A DNA stretch of 5,032 nt, from positions 1-5,032 of IMG/VR virus record IMGVR_UViG_2698536335_000005; one strand, given 5' to 3'. Of this stretch, positions 1 through 5,032 are shown piece by piece; positions within the stretch are counted from its first letter, which is position 1, and each line of letters begins with the position of its first letter. Under the pieces are notes generated by a model. That model searched no databases, was not told the DNA's origin, and worked only from the letters and a program-made list of their open reading frames with translations. Both the position numbers and the translations under genes were made by a program. This DNA comes from a virus. Lineage: Duplodnaviria; Heunggongvirae; Uroviricota; Caudoviricetes.

Positions 1-1629
1 GGTGCAGACTTTTTCCACTTCCTGTTGCGCCACTGGTTCAGGCTGTTTCGTTTCTGGCTCGTTTTGTAACGCATTTGGGCTGTTTTGTTCCGCTTTTTGG
101 TAGTTCCGTTCCGATTCATGCTGGTTCTGGTTTACAGAATCGCGGGTCTGGATCCCCTTAACCCATTTCGGATCATTCGGGTCGCTAATCCCTGCAACAA
201 ATTCTCCGCGAGAGGCAGCAAGCAACTTATCGGCGTCAGGCTGGCTGATATTGGCTGCCTGCATAATTTTGTTTACTTCGTCAGCGGTAACTTTTACCGG
301 CTCTGGTTGTGCGGTCGTGTCAGATGCACCAGTATTTTGTTGTGAACCTGAGTATGTACTGTTTTTGCGGGCGAAATATTCTTCTTTCGTGATTTCAGTA
401 GCCCCGGCAGCCAGTGCCTTATCCAGACCAGAAAGTTTGTTTGCGCGACCGTATTTTTCGCCATCCTTGTCGGTGAAGAGGAAGTAGAACGGCCCCTCAC
501 GCTCTACAGATGGTTCGACTTCCACTTTGCATTCGGTTTTTTCGTTGTCCGGAATTGCCGTTTCCACTGCATCAGTTTCTGGTACTGGCGACGAGAGAGT
601 ATCAGTTGCGCTCTGATTTGTTCCTTCATCTTCAAACACGCCCTTTGTAGTCAGGTATTCAGTAATGTATTTGTTCAGTGCCACAGGGTCTTTGTGAATG
701 TCGATCGGACGTTCACGGACAAGGCCAAAAATAGTCTGGCGGTCGTAGCGAAGGGCATCAGGCTGTTTGCGCATTGATGAGTTGTCGATAACTTCATTTT
801 TTGCCCAGCGATGGATGCTGCCGTCAATGTTTCCGGCATCCACATCACCAGGCCAGAGAGCGTAGGCCAGTTCGTCATCCAGTGTTTTCCATGTCTGCTT
901 GTATTCGCGATGAATGGCAGCAATGACCAGGCTGATTTTTCCTGTTGAATTTTCAGTGTGCTGTTGATTGACTCTGGCGCGGGCGAGATCAACAACAGAC
1001 GTGTATTTTCCGGTTTCCTTGCGTTCACCTTCGCGACGTTTTTTCCAGATGCGCATCTCTGCCTGAATTTCGGGCCATTTGGCACCAGGCTTACATTTAT
1101 GCTTAACCCACCCGATGGCATGCAGCTTAAGCTCCGGATACATGGCGTTAACTTCTGGCATTTTCATCAACGCTTCAACGATATGTCCGTTGAATGTTGC
1201 CATGTCTTCCTGCAACAATTCCTGTGCGCTAATAACCATATCAACGGTGATGTTTTCACATGTGTCGAACTTAACCATGAGAGCGTTCTGTACTTCAGGG
1301 GCCAGCTTGTCAAAAGTGACGTTCATCAGATCGGATTCAGTCTCAACCGGGACAAAAGAAGCAGAATCCTCATCCCAGCGGTTTTCCTGCATATATTCAG
1401 CATCCCATGAATCGAGGGCAGGGCGGGGTATGCCAGGTTTATCCTCGCAGATAATAAATTTATAAGCGCAGTCCTGAGCAGCCGGATAATGTTCCAGGAA
1501 TTGCCAGTGAAATTTTGCTCGAGCACGGCGTTCGTCGCCAGCTTCAATAGCTGTGGCTACAGCCACAGCGCCTTCTTCCCTTGTTGCCAGTTCGTCAGGA
1601 ATGGCGGCGCAAATAAAGACTTTACTCAT
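1..1629 (-). CDS. recE: RecE-like exodeoxyribonuclease VIII, N-terminal 543 codons; 3' end lies beyond the window start
   Basis: ATG at 1629..1627 (MSKVFICAAIPDELATREEG...) is preceded by GAGG 10 nt upstream and an in-frame TAA just upstream. The frame is open to position 1; I spot-checked it by hand at 1-60, 121-240, 301-360, 481-540, 601-660, 841-900, 1201-1260 and 1601-1629. The ORF track omits it, presumably because it has no stop in the window. The stretch PDADKLLAASRGEFVAGISDPNDPKWVKGIQTRD (about 121-240) matches my recollection of the E. coli RecE middle region, and an acidic Pro/Glu/Gln-rich linker (TAQPEPVKV, ETKQPEPVAQQEVEKV) fits RecE. Position at the distal end of the early-left operon is as expected for a recombination module. 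Confidence 0.75.
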   Translation of the reverse strand, partial: MSKVFICAAIPDELATREEGAVAVATAIEAGDERRARAKFHWQFLEHYPAAQDCAYKFIICEDKPGIPRPALDSWDAEYMQENRWDEDSASFVPVETESDLMNVTFDKLAPEVQNALMVKFDTCENITVDMVISAQELLQEDMATFNGHIVEALMKMPEVNAMYPELKLHAIGWVKHKCKPGAKWPEIQAEMRIWKKRREGERKETGKYTSVVDLARARVNQQHTENSTGKISLVIAAIHREYKQTWKTLDDELAYALWPGDVDAGNIDGSIHRWAKNEVIDNSSMRKQPDALRYDRQTIFGLVRERPIDIHKDPVALNKYITEYLTTKGVFEDEGTNQSATDTLSSPVPETDAVETAIPDNEKTECKVEVEPSVEREGPFYFLFTDKDGEKYGRANKLSGLDKALAAGATEITKEEYFARKNSTYSGSQQNTGASDTTAQPEPVKVTADEVNKIMQAANISQPDADKLLAASRGEFVAGISDPNDPKWVKGIQTRDSVNQNQHESERNYQKAEQNSPNALQNEPETKQPEPVAQQEVEKVCT

Positions 1630-1724
1630 TTTGTTTTAACCTCATGACAGATTTCAAGGTGAACGAATCCCTGCCATTGCTGGCATTTTTAATCCGTTGG
1701 TATGGTGTTAATATGGCTGGAGGG

Positions 1725-1913
1725 TTATCCAGCCGGTGTTTCGTTATTCAGGTACAGCGATACTTTTTTTAGCGGGAGGCATTCACCAGAAATTTTTTGC
1801 TCGTCTCTTGCCTGGAGGCAGGATTCTTTACTTGCATAAATTCCGGTAATCACATTCTGTGATTCACCCGTTATAAGAAAAACCGTCATCATCAGTGCAA
1901 ATGCTGAAGTCAT
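1725..1913 (-). CDS. ydfD: YdfD-like small membrane (lysis-type) protein, 62 aa
   Basis: ORF-track ORF MTSAFALMMTVFLITGESQ... with a hydrophobic N-terminal segment. Its ATG (1913..1911) overlaps the dicB stop as ATGA, and GGAG lies 7 nt upstream. Size and position immediately after dicB match ydfD of the Qin dicB operon (63 aa). The symbol is assigned by synteny and size, not by recognised sequence. Confidence 0.6.
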   Translation of the reverse strand: MTSAFALMMTVFLITGESQNVITGIYASKESCLQARDEQKISGECLPLKKVSLYLNNETPAG

Positions 1914-2098
1914 TGACGTTCTCCGAAAATACCAAGTTCAAGAAGAGCAATTCGGGAAAGTATGGAATTATCATTGAGCAGATAAGGCTCATATTTCCTC
2001 ATATTAATGGCATCTTCAGTAAACTCCCGGTTACTGAGCAGAACACCAATATCAAAACAACCTTCAGACGTATTAACGTTTGGTAATAACGTTTCCAT
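1910..2098 (-). CDS. dicB: cell division inhibitor DicB (MinC-activating), 62 aa
   Basis: ORF-track ORF METLLPNVNTSEGCFDIGVLLSNREFTEDAIN...; the N-terminus matches my recollection of E. coli DicB (METLLPNVNTSEGCF...) and the length is exactly 62 aa. GAGGA lies 7 nt upstream of the ATG. It sits about 180 nt downstream of the DicF-like terminator, as in the Qin dicB operon. Confidence 0.85.
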   Translation of the reverse strand: METLLPNVNTSEGCFDIGVLLSNREFTEDAINMRKYEPYLLNDNSILSRIALLELGIFGERQ

Positions 2099-2276
2099 TA
2101 TCGCGTCCTCAACAATGAATTTTGTGATGCAGTGCCTGGTGCCTCCAGGTGACGTTAACCAGTTAACAATTAACGCCGGATTAGTTGATGCTCGTTACGC
2201 CCGTAAAATACCGCCTTACTGCTTTAACTGTTCCGCGTGCGCATAGCCGCATTCACCGCATCACAAAATTCACTTT

Positions 2277-2302
2277 AAAAAGGGCGGATATCCGTTTCCG
2301 CC
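2277..2302 (-). terminator. Rho-independent terminator (DicF 3' end), partial terminator inside the leftward operon
   Basis: On the minus strand a 6-bp GC-rich stem GGCGGA/TCCGCC (plus 2283-2288 and 2297-2302) with an 8-nt loop is followed directly by CUUUUU (plus 2277-2281 is AAAAA). There is no U-tract on the plus-strand side, so it is orientation-specific for leftward transcription. Confidence 0.6.
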
Positions 2303-2316
2303 GAATCACCAGAAAA
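2277..2316 (-). ncRNA. dicF: DicF-like small RNA (ftsZ-targeting family) embedded in the dicB operon
   Basis: Minus-strand RNA reads UUUUCUGGUGAUUCGGCGGAAACGGAUAUCCGCCCUUUUU. The 5' UUUCUGGUGA and the 3' CCGCCCUUUUU terminator match what I recall of E. coli DicF. No ORF is present, and the location (upstream of dicB, downstream of ydfC) is that of dicF. The 5' boundary is approximate because the RNA is processed from a longer transcript. Confidence 0.55.
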
Positions 2317-2617
2317 GTGATAACAGAGGGCGTTGCAGCGGGGTTGTCACTTAAGCGTATGGTCAACCTGACAACCCGGTGTCCTCAGCGGGGAAGGAAT
2401 AACCCCGCCATACTTACCGCCGCGCCATTTCGCGGATTGCCACAACCGGAAGCGCACGGTCGAATTAAATTTAACGACTACCTACAGAGAGACGAACTTC
2501 GCCGTGCGCTTTCGCGTTATGCCCTGACTTTTCAGGGATATATCCTTTTCAGTAAACTGTCAGTGCCGGATTCTTATCCGTGTCCGGCGCACGCACTCTA
2601 CCTCACCTGTGAATAAA

Positions 2618-2992
2618 TTAATGATTAATTGATATTTTGTTGTTTGATTCAACTTTCCCATCGGATGTGTGATGCTTTAAATCACAGGAATTAATACTGC
2701 TTGCTGTAAAATGATTTTCAAGGGGAGCTATTCGAATCCCTTTCTTTTTCATTAACAAGCCAAATCCTTTATTAATGATGTTCATTAATTCCAGGAAGTA
2801 TTTTTCATGTAAATTCTGGTTATCAGAGAGCTGCTTCTCTTCGCACAGACCGATAAAGGCACGACGCACGTTACCGGATATAGTATCGATGGTTTCTTTT
2901 TCTACGGTACTCAGGTCAAGAGTCGCCAGTTGGGAACGAACTATATTCGCTGCCATTTCCTGGAATTGCATTGGTAAATCTTTAAATTCCAT
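2618..2992 (-). CDS. hypothetical protein, 124 aa, with AT-rich 3' half; possible moron inserted between ydfC and DicF
   Basis: ORF-track ORF MEFKDLPMQFQEMAANIVRSQLATLDLSTVEKETIDTISGNVRRAFIGLCEEKQ... GAGG lies 6 nt upstream of the ATG at 2992, and the gene is co-oriented with the operon. The 5' part has ordinary GC content, while the 3' roughly 180 nt is very AT-rich and encodes a low-complexity tail (KKKGIRIAPLENHF...NNKISINH). I recognise no family. Confidence 0.5.
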   Translation of the reverse strand: MEFKDLPMQFQEMAANIVRSQLATLDLSTVEKETIDTISGNVRRAFIGLCEEKQLSDNQNLHEKYFLELMNIINKGFGLLMKKKGIRIAPLENHFTASSINSCDLKHHTSDGKVESNNKISINH

Positions 2993-3014
2993 TATTAGCC
3001 TCGTTGGTTAGCTA

Positions 3015-3233
3015 TTAACGCGGGTATGTAATCATTCTGGCAATGCTTAATGCCGCTGCTTTTTCCAGATTAGTGATATCCTGCTCCAGAGCGGACAGAT
3101 TTTCAGCCTGCTTAGCCCTGGCTTCATTGGCCCATTTCAGATCCTGCGCTGCATTAATTTTCTGGTGCATCCACTCATAAAGTTCATCATCGGTATAGTC
3201 TGGCGCGATGATGACGGGTTCTCGTTTCTGCAT
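3015..3233 (-). CDS. ydfC: YdfC-like small protein, 72 aa
   Basis: ORF-track ORF MQKREPVIIAPDYTDDELYEWMHQKINAAQDLKWANEARAKQ... with GAGGAA 6 nt upstream of the ATG. Length (72 aa) and the 29-nt gap after the preceding ydfB-like ORF match the Qin ydfA-ydfB-ydfC arrangement as I recall it. Symbol by synteny and size. Confidence 0.65.
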   Translation of the reverse strand: MQKREPVIIAPDYTDDELYEWMHQKINAAQDLKWANEARAKQAENLSALEQDITNLEKAAALSIARMITYPR

Positions 3234-3262
3234 ACTGATTCCTCGCGGTGCTGTTTCGCTTA

Positions 3263-3391
3263 TCAGCCGTTAGATTTTGCCGAACTGGAAAGCGCCTGTT
3301 TAAATTCGTTGAAGCTGAGAGCTTCTTCGCCTTCGGCAAGACCTTCGAAGTATTCTTCGTAAGCCTTTTCCATGATTGTGTCGAAATCCAT
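3263..3391 (-). CDS. ydfB: YdfB-like small acidic protein, 42 aa (below the ORF-track size cutoff)
   Basis: Hand translation of the minus strand: ATG at 3391..3389, MDFDTIMEKAYEEYFEGLAEGEEALSFNEFKQALSSSAKSNG, stop TGA at 3265..3263. AGGTGA lies 5-6 nt upstream, and the ATG is 1 nt after the ydfA-like stop (TGAtATG), indicating translational coupling. The 42-aa length matches Qin ydfB. Confidence 0.55.
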   Translation of the reverse strand: MDFDTIMEKAYEEYFEGLAEGEEALSFNEFKQALSSSAKSNG

Positions 3392-3392
3392 A

Positions 3393-3548
3393 TCACTCAC
3401 CTGAGTTTCTTTCCAGCCAGCGACGGGCACCATTTTCGGTTTTAAACGTTTTGCTTTTGGTATACGTCATCGCGGTGAACGTACCGTCCTGGTTGGGGAA
3501 CACGCCACATACCAGAGATTCGCTGTTGCCAAGATCGATAGTATCCAT
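3393..3548 (-). CDS. ydfA: YdfA-like small protein, 51 aa; alternative upstream start at 3629 would give 78 aa
   Basis: The ORF-track ORF 3393..3629 is 78 aa, but the internal ATG at 3548..3546 (MDTIDLGNSESLVCGVFPNQDGTF...) has GAGG 5 nt upstream and yields exactly 51 aa, the Qin ydfA length. The 3629 start has GAGG about 9 nt upstream and cannot be excluded from sequence alone. Confidence 0.6.
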   Translation of the reverse strand: MDTIDLGNSESLVCGVFPNQDGTFTAMTYTKSKTFKTENGARRWLERNSGE

Positions 3549-3730
3549 GCTGACCTCATTTCCCCTTAACGCCGGGGTAGCGGAACAAAAACCTGCTGCA
3601 TAGTTATTAAAGTTGAACCCTGCCGTCATGTTCTTACGCCTCGGGCTGGCTACTTAACCCCTGACCACTGCCTGGTAACTCGAAGTATTGCCCTGCATTC
3701 TGTGGGGCGGGGTGGGTTGGTATGAAAAGA

Positions 3731-3759
3731 AGGATACCCATAGGTATTTAAAAAGTAAA
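3731..3759 (-). promoter_or_regulatory. candidate sigma70 promoter for the leftward operon (pL/pdicB-like)
   Basis: On the minus strand: -35 TTTACT (plus 3754-3759), 17-nt spacer, -10 TATCCT (plus 3731-3736). The predicted start near 3723-3725 leaves a leader of roughly 95 to 175 nt depending on the ydfA start. Both flanking operator copies overlap the -35 side and the spacer/-10. Confidence 0.4.
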
Positions 3760-3771
3760 TACCCATGGGTA
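3735..3771. promoter_or_regulatory. OL-like operator pair: TACCCATAGGTA (3735-3746) and perfect palindrome TACCCATGGGTA (3760-3771)
   Basis: Two 12-bp dyad-symmetric sites with centres about 25 bp apart overlap the leftward promoter. The same motif recurs in the repressor/cro intergenic region. Confidence 0.55.
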
Positions 3772-3813
3772 AATTTTTGCGGTGTCTTAACTGGTGACTA
3801 GTTGTTTGGTGAG

Positions 3814-4233
3814 CTATGATGCGTTTTGTGCTTTCTTTTTACGGATTTCTTCGTAGATCATATTGTAATACTGTTTTTTCTCTTCAAGAGTTTTTAATAA
3901 TTTATCCGCTTCACTTTCTGGCAGTTCGTCTAAGAGATCTAAAAAAATACGTTGTCGTGGCGTTAGAACCCTTGTTTCATAACTGGAGGCTGTGTTCGTT
4001 GATGATGAAACGATACCATCCATCCATCCCCGGGGTAACCCAAAGGACTCTTCGATAATCTCCACCATATCATCAGCGATCCGTTTTTTTCCCTTTTTCC
4101 CCTCTGGGTACAACATTCTTGATACATAAGAAGGCTCGCGCCCGATCTTTCTGGCCACGTTAACCGCTTTACCATCGCATTTCTCATCACGAATTTTGAT
4201 GAGTTGCTGTCGTCTAAATTCATATTTGTCCAT
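3814..4233 (-). CDS. prophage immunity repressor, XRE/cI-type N-terminal HTH, 139 aa, no LexA-like peptidase domain
   Basis: ORF-track ORF MDKYEFRRQQLIKIRDEKCDGKAVNVARKIGREPSYVSRMLYPEG... with an HTH-like segment near residues 20-40. It is divergent from the cro-like gene and co-oriented with the leftward operon, which is the cI/DicA/RacR position. At 139 aa it is too short for an S24 autocleavage domain. No SD precedes the ATG, consistent with a leaderless transcript. Confidence 0.75.
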   Translation of the reverse strand: MDKYEFRRQQLIKIRDEKCDGKAVNVARKIGREPSYVSRMLYPEGKKGKKRIADDMVEIIEESFGLPRGWMDGIVSSSTNTASSYETRVLTPRQRIFLDLLDELPESEADKLLKTLEEKKQYYNMIYEEIRKKKAQNAS

Positions 4234-4304
4234 AGGTAAATAATAGATGCGATTACCGCAAGGTAAACAACCTGTGGGTATTGACTTTTGTTTACCTGTG
4301 GGTA
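4227..4304. promoter_or_regulatory. OR-like tripartite operator: TGTCCATAGGTA (4227-4238), AACCTGTGGGTA (4269-4280), TACCTGTGGGTA (4293-4304)
   Basis: Three copies of the OL motif (9-10 of 12 matches to TACCCATGGGTA) lie between the divergent repressor and cro-like genes. The 4227-4238 copy overlaps the repressor start codon. The other two flank and overlap the rightward -35 and -10. Confidence 0.5.
4240..4267 (-). promoter_or_regulatory. candidate pRM-like promoter producing a leaderless repressor mRNA
   Basis: On the minus strand: -35 TTTACC (plus 4262-4267), 16-nt spacer, -10 TATTAT (plus 4240-4245). The -10 ends 6 nt before the repressor ATG at 4233, so the predicted start falls at or next to the ATG, and no SD is present. 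Confidence 0.4.
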
Positions 4305-4308
4305 TTCT
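4282..4308 (+). promoter_or_regulatory. candidate pR-like promoter for the cro-like/ydaT operon
   Basis: -35 TTGACT at 4282-4287. The best -10 is TATTCT at 4303-4308 with a short 15-nt spacer, so the -10 assignment is uncertain. It lies between and over the two right-hand operator copies, about 25 nt upstream of the ydaS-like RBS. Confidence 0.35.
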
Positions 4309-4333
4309 TTGCTGTGTTTACTAAGGAGTAGCT

Positions 4334-4615
4334 ATGGAAGAATTAAGAATATTTCTCAATTCTCTTTCGTCAGATGAACAGCGTATGTTTGCATGCGAGT
4401 GTGGTACCAGCATCGGTTATCTAAGAAAGGCATTGAGTAAAGGTCAAGTGTTAGGGGCATCGTTATGTGTCCTTATTGAGCGAGCCAGTAATGGTGAAGT
4501 TACACGTCAGCAACTAAGGCCTTTTGATTGGATGAATATTTGGCCCGAGCTGGAAGATACCAAAACGTTAACACAACCACTTTCTAGGAGCTTGATTCAT
4601 GAAAATCAAGCATGA
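4334..4615 (+). CDS. ydaS: Cro-like HTH regulator, YdaS family, 93 aa
   Basis: ORF-track ORF MEELRIFLNSLSSDEQRMFACECGTSIGYLRKALSKGQVLGASLCVLIERASNGEVTRQQLRPFDWMNIWPELED... AAGGAG lies 5 nt upstream of the ATG. The motif IERASNGEVTRQQLRP...WPEL resembles the YdaS/Cro family as I recall it. It is divergent from the repressor, in the cro position. Confidence 0.75.
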   Translation: MEELRIFLNSLSSDEQRMFACECGTSIGYLRKALSKGQVLGASLCVLIERASNGEVTRQQLRPFDWMNIWPELEDTKTLTQPLSRSLIHENQA

Positions 4616-5024
4616 ACACATCCGCATGGCGATGAATGCCTGGGCGCGTCCTGATGGCGAAAAAGTTCCAGCAGCTGGAATAACCCAGGCTTATTTTGAG
4701 TTGGGTATGACGTTCCCAGAACTGTATGACGACAGCCATCCGGAAGCCCTGGCTCGCAATACCCAGAAAATTTTCCGCTGGGTAGAGAAAGACACCCCTG
4801 ATGCTGTTGAAAAAATGCAGGCTCTGTTACCGGCGATCGAAAAGGCGATGCCGCCTTTGCTGGTGGCCCGTATGCGCAGCCACAGTTCTGAATATTACCG
4901 TGAGATCGTCGAACGGAGGGATCGGCTGGTGAAGGATGTCGATGATTTTGTTGCGTCAGCGGTTGTTTTGTATGACCAGATGAATCGCGGCGGCCCGGCA
5001 GGGAATGCTGTGGTGATGCACTAA
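4599..5024 (+). CDS. ydaT: YdaT-family protein (cII-position early regulator, toxic on overexpression in Rac), 141 aa
   Basis: ORF-track ORF MKIKHEHIRMAMNAWARPDGEKVPAAGITQAYFELGMTF... AGGAG lies 8 nt upstream of the ATG, and the gene overlaps the 3' end of the ydaS-like gene by 17 nt. The MKIKHEHI start and roughly 140-aa size match my recollection of E. coli YdaT. Stop TAA at 5022-5024. Confidence 0.75.
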   Translation: MKIKHEHIRMAMNAWARPDGEKVPAAGITQAYFELGMTFPELYDDSHPEALARNTQKIFRWVEKDTPDAVEKMQALLPAIEKAMPPLLVARMRSHSSEYYREIVERRDRLVKDVDDFVASAVVLYDQMNRGGPAGNAVVMH

Positions 5025-5032
5025 AAGCACGG

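Follow-up and report, generated by a model that had tools for sequence, protein, structure and literature searches.

What a roughly 300-nucleotide (nt) untranslated spacer contributes upstream of the small RNA DicF is the question raised by positions 2317-2617 of the window, that is, the whole 5,032-nt stretch analysed here (positions 1 to 5,032 of IMG/VR virus record IMGVR_UViG_2698536335_000005). DicF is among the bacterial small RNAs that have been known longest, and the operon that encodes it is toxic and under tight control. The open reading frames (ORFs), and the annotation of a RefSeq locus identical to it, show the window to be a Qin-like lambdoid prophage with its early-left dicBF operon on the minus strand. 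The spacer occupies the place of a DicF leader, with a ydfC-like gene on one side and DicF/dicB on the other, on the strand of that operon that is transcribed. Judged from this position and from homology, the spacer is the non-coding leader of the DicF precursor of a Qin-type dicBF operon. The reading favoured in this study, with a probability of about 0.5, is that the leader is composed of two RNA modules, a long duplex that is a likely RNase III substrate (module 1, 2441-2521) and a pseudoknotted four-way junction (module 2, 2332-2446), and that the second of these, processing frame included, would be an excised, autonomous structured RNA.

The spacer aligned over its full length with the region between ydfC and dicB in K-12 Qin and in an O157:H7 prophage (mean column identity of 90% in the three-way alignment), and a megablast comparison with a K-12-like strain returned 90.3% identity at 88% query coverage. 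Positions of about 2311-2460 were nearly invariant across the window, K-12 and O157, more so than DicF itself. The K-12 Qin ydfC-dicF untranslated region shares the operon position, strand, long duplex, junction domain and DicF seed at ~90% identity, whereas the window differs in carrying an additional 124-amino-acid (aa) ORF between ydfC and the leader and a DicF shortened to 39 nt. Similar DNA was present in 4566 of 5426 complete E. coli genomes, at a median of two places per genome, and a single place covered at least 80% of the 401-base-pair (bp) query in 3365 of the 5426, K-12 included.

The inverted repeats that first drew attention to the spacer were all recovered at the positions given for them in an earlier note made from the sequence. 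The long-range repeat pairs AGCGCACGG (2451-2459) with CCGTGCGCT (2502-2510), its length being corrected from 9 bp to a perfect 10-mer (2450-2459 with 2502-2511), and it encloses the palindrome TTAAATTTAA at 2465-2474. The other repeats are GGGTTGTCA (2341-2349) with TGACAACCC (2369-2377), GCGGGG (2388-2393) with CCCCGC (2403-2408), and CCCTGA with TCAGGG inside 2522-2537. Compared with 1000 dinucleotide-preserving shuffles of 2317-2617, in which perfect inverted repeats with loops of 3-60 nt were counted, the repeats exceeded chance: two of at least 9 bp vs. 0.05 expected (reached by 0 of 1000 shuffles), three of at least 8 bp vs. 0.18 expected (P = 0.001), and seven of at least 6 bp vs. 2.9 expected (P = 0.024). 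The minus-strand fold, which had been proposed as a check, was likewise more stable than that of shuffled sequences (z = -2.9).

The four listed repeats were right, and the inventory missed a hairpin at 2420-2435 (H1), a closing helix (P0), a further helix (P2) and a pseudoknot, which together with two of the listed repeats form the core domain, a four-way junction of ~115 nt (2332-2446, minus strand) supported by folding, RNAalifold, a covariance model (match at 2319-2448) and pair counts. The domain is closed by P0, in which GUUGUGGC (2446 to 2439) pairs with GCUGCAAC (2339 to 2332). H1 follows as CCGCG-AAAUGG-CGCGG (2435 to 2431 with 2424 to 2420, loop AAAUGG), and P2 pairs CGGU (2419 to 2416) with ACCG (2380 to 2377). 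The GCGGGG/CCCCGC repeat forms H2 (2407 to 2403 with 2393 to 2389, loop UUAUUCCUU), and the GGGTTGTCA/TGACAACCC repeat forms H3 (2376 to 2369 with 2349 to 2342), which is lengthened by a 3-bp extension of GGU (2368 to 2366) with GCU (2356 to 2354). P2 was obtained with RNAalifold, and the minimum free energy (MFE) fold of 2277-2448 alone returned P0, H1, H2 and H3. The pseudoknot joins GUAUGG (2408-2413), located in the internal loop between P2 and H2, to CCAUAC in the apical loop of H3 (2357-2362, pairing as 2362 to 2357). The helices adjoin one another with almost no linkers, giving a compact four-way junction. Taken from these folds and comparisons, hairpins H2 (2388-2408) and H3 (2341-2377) are arms of a single pseudoknotted domain, not the separate RNase III or RNase E duplexes for which they had been taken.

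Comparison of homologues, which the earlier note had suggested, revealed compensatory change throughout the junction helices. The copies compared for structure came from phages P1, P7 and cdtI, from Salmonella phage F1055, and from both IMG/VR contigs and metagenomes. A covariance model, for which 24 sequences were used, scored 151.6 bits on the window and found one copy in each of 76 loci. In an alignment of 76 distinct sequences (A4), 96.1% of cells were paired and 15 pairs had changed on both sides vs. 5.5 +/- 1.6 in shuffles; in an alignment of 28 more diverse sequences (A6), 96.0% of cells were paired and 18 of 39 pairs had changed on both sides vs. 7.6 +/- 1.7 in shuffles, with at most 10 such pairs in slid controls. 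All six pseudoknot pairs were 100% paired in A6, and the P1-type pseudoknot (GCAUGG:CCAUGC) is compensatory relative to GUAUGG:CCAUAC, while that of F1055 contains a U-G wobble. The H2 stem occurs as CGGGG/CCCCG, CUGGGG/CUCCAG, CAGGUG/CACCUG, CGAGG/CCUCG and UGGUG/CACCA. The H3 stem GGUUGUCA/UGACAACC becomes GGAUCACCA/UGGUGAUCC in variant V2 and GUAACGCG/CGCGUUAC in variant V3, and P0 becomes UGCUGU/ACAGCG in V2 and GCAGUAG/CUACUGC in V3; the P0 and H3 stems of these two variants are thus wholly different in sequence and still paired. In V3, H1 is replaced by GCC-GAAA-GGC. Many of the pairs are G-U pairs, and the minus strand is therefore identified as the RNA strand.

The segment itself behaved as a transcribed, untranslated minus-strand leader. 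As had been claimed, no sizeable ORF was found on the minus strand (the longest in the segment is 37 aa, and no conserved ORF covers it). On the plus strand, a TTG-initiated frame of 143 codons is open at 2185-2616 in the window, K-12, O157 and Tritos; it is broken in loci L025, L032, L127 and L033, and close relatives differ by 1-nt indels, with matched stretches of 128-134 nt of which 130 and 131 are both common. Given the broken plus frame in relatives and the frequent 1-nt indels, the segment is considered non-coding on both strands, and the 143-aa plus-strand ORF was rejected as a candidate. The explanation that nothing functional is encoded, the hairpins being chance features of decaying prophage DNA or the region belonging to that plus-strand gene, could draw on the open frame in those four sequences and on the many copies that reside in defective prophages. 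It is reduced to a negligible probability by the indels and broken frames, by repeats far above the chance level, by G-U pairs specific to the minus strand, and by conservation that reaches as far as P1/P7 and metagenome variants whose stems are fully compensatory.

Some features of the P2/H2 region were recorded in passing. The sequence (G/C)UGAGGAC in the internal loop (2381-2390, minus strand) nearly repeats the dicB ribosome-binding region GUUGAGGAC (2103-2112, minus strand), and in K-12 the 9-mer GUUGAGGAC is identical in the two places; this may be mimicry or chance. The H2 loop is usually pyrimidine-rich and resembles an anti-Shine-Dalgarno sequence (UCCUU, CUCC). The motif is common but absent in V2 (GGAGUCUGA), and, with no search for targets made, the loop was not retained as a candidate seed.

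Upstream of the junction, module 1 is a long imperfect hairpin (2441-2521, minus strand, MFE fold) of ~22 bp including CGAA/UUCG and likely an RNase III substrate. Its 5' strand (2521 to 2502) reads CAUAAC-G-CG-A-AAGCGCACGG and its 3' strand (2459 to 2441) reads CCGUGCGCUU-C-CG-GUUGUG, such that the perfect 10-mer forms the centre of a duplex extended outwards to about 22 bp with small bulges, the outer part being CAUAAC (2521 to 2516) with GUUGUG (2446 to 2441). The apical part (2460-2501), which includes the palindrome, is variable. In alignment A5, comprising 25 diverse leaders and used for the duplex pair counts, the 22-pair helix was 94.9% paired, and the outer six pairs (a:b) were retained in 24-25 of the 25 sequences by way of C-G to U-G changes. 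Rac-type leaders carry a compensatory AAGGCGCA/UGCGCCUC in the duplex, and cdtI together with metagenome variants V1, V2, V4 and V5 have an unrelated long duplex at the same place, ending again in ...UCGUUGUG.

Two DicF species are described in K-12 by Ragunathan et al. (2023, 10.1101/2023.04.14.536235), one of 190 nt with a 5' end made by RNase III and one of 53 nt made by RNase E, as is also quoted by Bilusic et al. (2014, PMC4152368); the former work adds that the 190-nt species is stable and builds up when RNase E is inactive. Length arithmetic (190 minus 53 to 58 nt) would put the K-12 RNase III end at GUGCG|CUUCC|GGUUGUGG, within the 3' strand of the long-range repeat, 0-5 nt 5' of P0 and about 137 nt upstream of DicF. 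The duplex at 2441-2521 is therefore, on sequence comparison with K-12, the likely substrate of the RNase III cut that gives the 190-nt species its 5' end there. Of the hairpins that had been put forward as processing substrates, the long-range repeat is the one that retains this role, given the 94.9% pairing of the duplex of which it is the centre and the position of the 190-nt end in its 3' strand. For the K-12 copy, this processing role is already in the literature and has been known since 1990 (Faubladier et al. 1990, as cited in later work). The duplex strand GUUGUG (2446 to 2441) was also observed to have two partners, CAUAAC upstream (the duplex) and CUGCAAC downstream (P0).

Combined, these features suggest an order of events. 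RNase III would cut the long duplex a few bases 5' of P0, freeing GUUGUG from its upstream partner to close P0; RNase E would then cut the single-stranded linker about 16 nt 3' of P0 and release DicF. Module 2 would form the body of the 190-nt species and would be left over as a structured RNA of ~135 nt, which we expect to fold independently, to be locked by its 6-bp pseudoknot and probably to act as a protein-binding stable RNA rather than as a servant of DicF maturation. An autonomous function is favoured for three reasons: conservation of the domain exceeds that of DicF, copies of it are found where the DicF seed is missing (and, in V2 and V3, where the terminator is missing), and working leaders can lack it. 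The earlier note had suggested that the spacer might hide a second small RNA, and we think that this is the part of it most likely to be right, since the junction lies between the putative RNase III site and the DicF 5' end. Bilusic et al. (2014, PMC4152368) include an interval enriched with Hfq that lies upstream of dicF.

Several points weigh against this interpretation. The RNase III cut is placed by length alone, and the published position '813/814' could not be mapped onto the sequence. The a:b pairing and P0 are nearly iso-energetic in single-sequence folds (P0 appears in a 264-nt fold and a:b in a 356-nt fold), and the GUUGUG strand is almost invariant, so that support for both pairings is mostly one-sided. 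Pairs were counted on alignments that had been fitted to a model of the proposed structure, and the sequences aligned are closely related, mostly E. coli prophages, with H2 partly out of register. Binding of Hfq to the 190-nt precursor could be enough to explain the Hfq enrichment. The published probes targeted DicF, and a discrete RNA of ~135 nt is a prediction from sequence. Finally, the terminator that closely follows most copies of the domain (below) also fits a role in cis.

The processing data lend themselves to a second explanation, that the domain is purely a processing and stability scaffold that presents the RNase III and RNase E sites, protects the 190-nt precursor and has no function once cut off. 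The location of the domain between the probable RNase III site and the DicF 5' end is consistent with such a scaffold, as are the stability of the 190-nt species, its accumulation with RNase E inactive, and the GUUGUG strand common to the RNase III duplex and P0. This explanation is considered doubtful because the domain is more conserved than DicF and is present without the DicF seed in P1, cdtI and F1055 and without a terminator in V2 and V3. Additionally, leaders that naturally lack the junction keep the duplex and a DicF-like hairpin, so that processing seems not to need the domain, and a 6-bp pseudoknot with compensatory change is more elaborate than a spacer requires.

The coreless leaders in question were found in 91 IMG/VR loci (L270-L360) and also at 2495-2512 of L009 and 3508-3528 of L363. 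In these, the junction interior is reduced to a small loop of 4-5 nt (GGUUGUG-AAUA-ACAAC), with the duplex on the upstream side, the DicF-like terminator and the duplex on the downstream side all kept. Rac-type and N-encoding phages carry such leaders, usually with a kil-like gene downstream, and they are found in viable phages both with N (phiSTEC1589, PhiR5_2) and without it (Rac-SA53, vB_EcoS-666R9). Since working leaders without the domain exist, the domain is best described as optional cargo nested in a hairpin of a conserved leader. The coreless leaders thereby provide ready-made natural deletion controls with which readthrough, processing and trans roles are directly testable.

The domain, in turn, extends beyond dicF loci. 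The P1/P7 ban leader contains H1, P2, H2, H3 and the pseudoknot at about 78-83% identity, followed by a terminator and then operon genes; unlike the window, it has no upstream RNase III duplex, convincing P0 or ftsZ-type DicF seed. There, the domain starts about 35 nt after the C1-controlled Pban start and is followed by the terminator, tRNA genes and ban. The P1 record NC_005856 labels part of this region 'dicF-like region', a label that spans only the 3' half of H3 and the terminator; if the favoured reading is right, the element is really the junction domain. In cdtI-type and Stx2c phages, the domain lies about 280 nt after a PL-like promoter, and in Salmonella F1055 it lies in the early-left leader, ahead of an RdgC-like gene. 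P1, cdtI and F1055 carry the domain without a DicF seed, and the upstream ORFs of domain-bearing loci are YdfA/B/C-like. Among the 21 sequence classes with downstream sequence examined, 19 have a terminator within 10-50 nt of the domain, with very variable terminator sequences; beyond that terminator, a second long-range duplex ends at the ribosome-binding site of the next gene. V2 and V3 have no terminator after the domain, and in V2 the domain runs directly into the second long duplex. Divergent metagenome members with fully compensatory stems were found at about 3850-4000 of L483 (original plus strand), 1505-1636 of L424 and 1757-1877 of L448.

A few matches lay in other settings. In L483, a 168-aa ORF lies about 1 kb downstream of the copy and a lysozyme-like ORF about 2.8 kb downstream, a context unlike an early-left operon. 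Actinobacillus phage vB_Apl-pPE4 (PP818812.1, 6151-6262) matched the 121-nt domain query with 85.7% identity over 88% of its length, which could reflect either a wider host range or a host mis-assignment. On the rightward side of the cdtI phage locus (L008, 4896-5084, plus strand), Rfam matches to isrK and C4 antisense RNA above gathering score were found and are unrelated.

The context of the domain brings in the main rival explanation, a cis-acting terminator-readthrough element like HK022 put or Bacillus EAR RNA, in which the nascent domain would bind RNA polymerase and allow it to pass the DicF terminator into dicB, the exonuclease gene and int (in P1, the tRNA genes and ban). Support for such an element comes from the strong intrinsic terminator 10-50 nt after P0 in 19 of 21 classes with operon genes beyond it, and from the placement of the domain in early leaders controlled by phage repressors (P1 Pban, cdtI PL). 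The order of element, terminator, RNase III-type duplex and ribosome-binding site also recalls lambda nutL and the N-leader. Furthermore, a homologue of the phiSTEC1589 type of N, the one N family searched, was found in 0 of 102 domain-bearing loci with enough upstream DNA vs. 14 of 62 coreless loci. The absence of N from domain-bearing loci is suggestive. A mutual exclusion of domain and N was considered and rejected as not clean: 30 of the 62 coreless loci are N-less and of the ydfA type, and viable Rac-type phages lack both.

These N-less coreless loci also count against readthrough, as do viable phages with neither N nor domain that retain the same terminator (Rac-SA53, 666R9), the V2 and V3 variants without a terminator after the domain, and the single copy per phage with none on the rightward operon. 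Ragunathan et al. (2023, 10.1101/2023.04.14.536235) report that K-12 transcripts longer than ydfABC-dicF were not detected. Readthrough is thus an alternative worth keeping in view and, on this evidence, an unlikely one.

The similarity to put was pursued separately. HK022 put RNA is likewise a structured RNA in the early transcripts of an N-less phage, upstream of terminators that have to be passed, and an analogy of action is possible. Put RNA suppresses termination without additional factors through the zinc-binding domain of the RNA polymerase beta' subunit. It is about 70 nt long, with two stems and a triplex, and is present as two copies per phage beside PL and PR, whereas the junction domain measures 115 nt, has a pseudoknot, and occurs as a single copy per locus, here about 1.3 kb into the operon and downstream of the repressor gene. 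Homology to put, prompted by motifs seen by eye (CCGCGAAAUGGCGCGG vs. GACGAACGGCGCGUC and GGGUUGUCAGGUUGA vs. GGGUUCAGGAUGA), was rejected on the different architecture and on the covariance model of the junction family, which gave no match to HK022 putL or putR with filters off at E <= 10 in a search made in this direction only; MAFFT gave no credible alignment of the junction with put. This lack of similarity is a further point against a put-like readthrough element.

A lambda-type antitermination site was also considered. In the lambda N-leader, likewise early-left, an RNA element precedes a long RNase III-type duplex whose end is at a ribosome-binding site. Lambda nut consists of boxA and a boxB hairpin (5-bp stem and GNRA-like pentaloop) with the N gene in the same operon. 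The leader studied here differs in having no boxA/boxB and no N gene of the one family searched, and hairpin HPb has a 6-bp stem and an AAAG loop. The nut-like boxA candidates (GUGCUCUC in cdtI and F1055, GUGCGCUUCC here) are the 3' strand of the long duplex, and HPb resembles boxB only superficially, with the wrong loop and stem geometry and no N gene, so both were discarded.

Searches against known RNA classes were negative. No Rfam 15 family matched 2317-2617, and the sole match within 2200-2700 (E = 9.3) lay outside the spacer and is a chance match. A tRNA- or tmRNA-like element was rejected, as ARAGORN found nothing in the window, the Rfam tRNA model had no match at E <= 10 in the region, and the four arms have lengths unlike those of tRNA. 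A literature search for the sequence itself returned unrelated primers only, and a scan of genome contigs with a 16-mer gave hardly anything but chance matches. A ligand-sensing riboswitch or attenuator that governs the DicF terminator would agree with the four-way junction and pseudoknot, typical of aptamers, with the terminator close behind the domain in most members, and with the alternative partners of the P0 3' strand in some variants (e.g., CAACA...UGUUG in L127). It is regarded as very improbable, as inspection by eye found no conserved pairing between the 3' part of the domain and the 5' arm of the terminator, V2 and V3 lack a terminator, no Rfam riboswitch model matched, and the downstream genes are unrelated across contexts (dicB, kil-like, tRNAs, RdgC-like).

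Returning to the favoured reading of an excised RNA, a broader proposal can be put forward tentatively, as a possibility that falls short of an even chance: the domain may represent a new structured phage RNA class, carried as optional cargo in the early transcripts of temperate enterobacterial phages (Qin-type, other lambdoid, and P1/P7), that acts either once excised, by binding for example RNA polymerase, Hfq or a nuclease, or as an RNA-only readthrough element unrelated to put. The junction fold, its sharing with P1/P7 and its optional nature were not found in Rfam 15 or in the literature searched, two relevant older works lying outside that search, so that an earlier description is possible. 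The K-12 work, as far as its available text extends, describes cleavage sites and neither a four-way junction or pseudoknot nor occurrence outside dicF loci (Ragunathan et al. 2023, 10.1101/2023.04.14.536235). At least 3365 of the 5426 complete E. coli genomes nevertheless contain homologous DNA that covers the domain, yet the domain has no Rfam entry or description in the literature searched. If the favoured reading is right, two RNAs would be encoded at dicF loci, and the '190-nt DicF' would consist of two domains.

Downstream of P0, the single-stranded linker GCCCUCUGUUAUCACU (2316-2331, minus strand), defined by alignment with K-12, separates the junction from the DicF 5' end and is presumed to contain the RNase E cut site. 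A terminator scan and the K-12 alignment identified a shortened DicF-like small RNA of 39 nt (2277-2315, minus strand), composed of the UUUCUGGUGA seed and an intrinsic terminator with a stem at 2302 to 2283 (GGCGGA/UCCGCC) followed by a U-tract. Compared with K-12 DicF, the seed and terminator are kept and the internal stem-loop is deleted. The identification of the downstream gene as DicF thus holds for the homologous seed and terminator, with the qualification that the gene is a shortened variant below Rfam detection: the Rfam DicF model (RF00039, gathering score 48 bits) gave no match in 2200-2700 at E <= 10 and none across the whole window at E <= 1, vs. 76.7 bits on K-12 DicF. L033 and L046 carry the same 39-nt variant. 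Since the 3' part of K-12 DicF reportedly pairs with ftsZ, the targets of this variant may differ.

Beyond the terminator, alignment and comparison with K-12 defined a second long-range duplex (2114-2276, minus strand), in which AAAGUGAAUUUUGUGAUG (2276 to 2259) pairs with CAUCACAAAAUUCAUU (2129 to 2114). The insert that it encloses is structured, conserved and nearly invariant, and the duplex stops just short of the dicB ribosome-binding site. The Rfam model STnc100 (RF02076) matched 2066-2284 with 31.2 bits, under its gathering score of 47; this match covers the RNA between DicF and dicB, not the spacer. At the place of the second duplex, cdtI-type phages have an unrelated duplex (ACAAAACAGAGAAGAGCA with UGUUCUUCUCUGUUUUGU). 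A 72-nt DicF with a 3' end generated by RNase III has been published, as known through quotation.

Two further hairpins lie in the spacer. The fourth repeat of the earlier list forms HPb, CCCUGA-AAAG-UCAGGG (2522-2537, minus strand; sequence and fold), which reads CUCUGA/UCAGAG in O157 with one compensatory change; overall, 70-82% of its cells were paired in A5, weak support. The distal hairpin HPc, GCCGGA-CACGGAUAAGAA-UCCGGC (2565-2588, minus strand), has a predicted 6-bp stem in both MFE and centroid folds, and its sequence is kept in Qin-type and coreless relatives. The DicF 5' seed region ACUUUUCUGG (2309-2318) is complementary at 9 of 10 positions to CCUGAAAAGU of HPb (2527-2536), and the 264-nt fold pairs the two and so encloses the whole leader, possibly by chance; this pairing (repeat I6) is unsupported by covariation and was set aside.

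The window is 100% identical to E. coli 2013C-4991, whose annotation lists a repressor (annotated as hypothetical), a DUF1391 protein, ydfB, ydfC, a hypothetical protein, a gap, and dicB; Pfam also found DUF1391 in the window. In transcription order on the minus strand, the operon contains a DicA-like repressor (3814-4233), followed by the DUF1391 protein of the YdfA family (3393-3548), ydfB and ydfC (3015-3233), and, between ydfC and the spacer, the 124-aa phage protein of unassigned function (2618-2992, PHROG 6937). A DUF1482 protein and an exonuclease come after dicB (1910-2098) on the 3' side of the DicF-like small RNA. A 16-bp inverted repeat, TACCCATAGGTATTTA...TAAATACCCATGGGTA at 3735-3771, which surfaced as a spurious miRNA match, lies directly downstream of the repressor gene and before the ydfA-like gene. 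Repeated CCTGTGGGTA motifs occur at about 4262-4310 between the divergent repressor and cro-like genes; these are probably operator sites.

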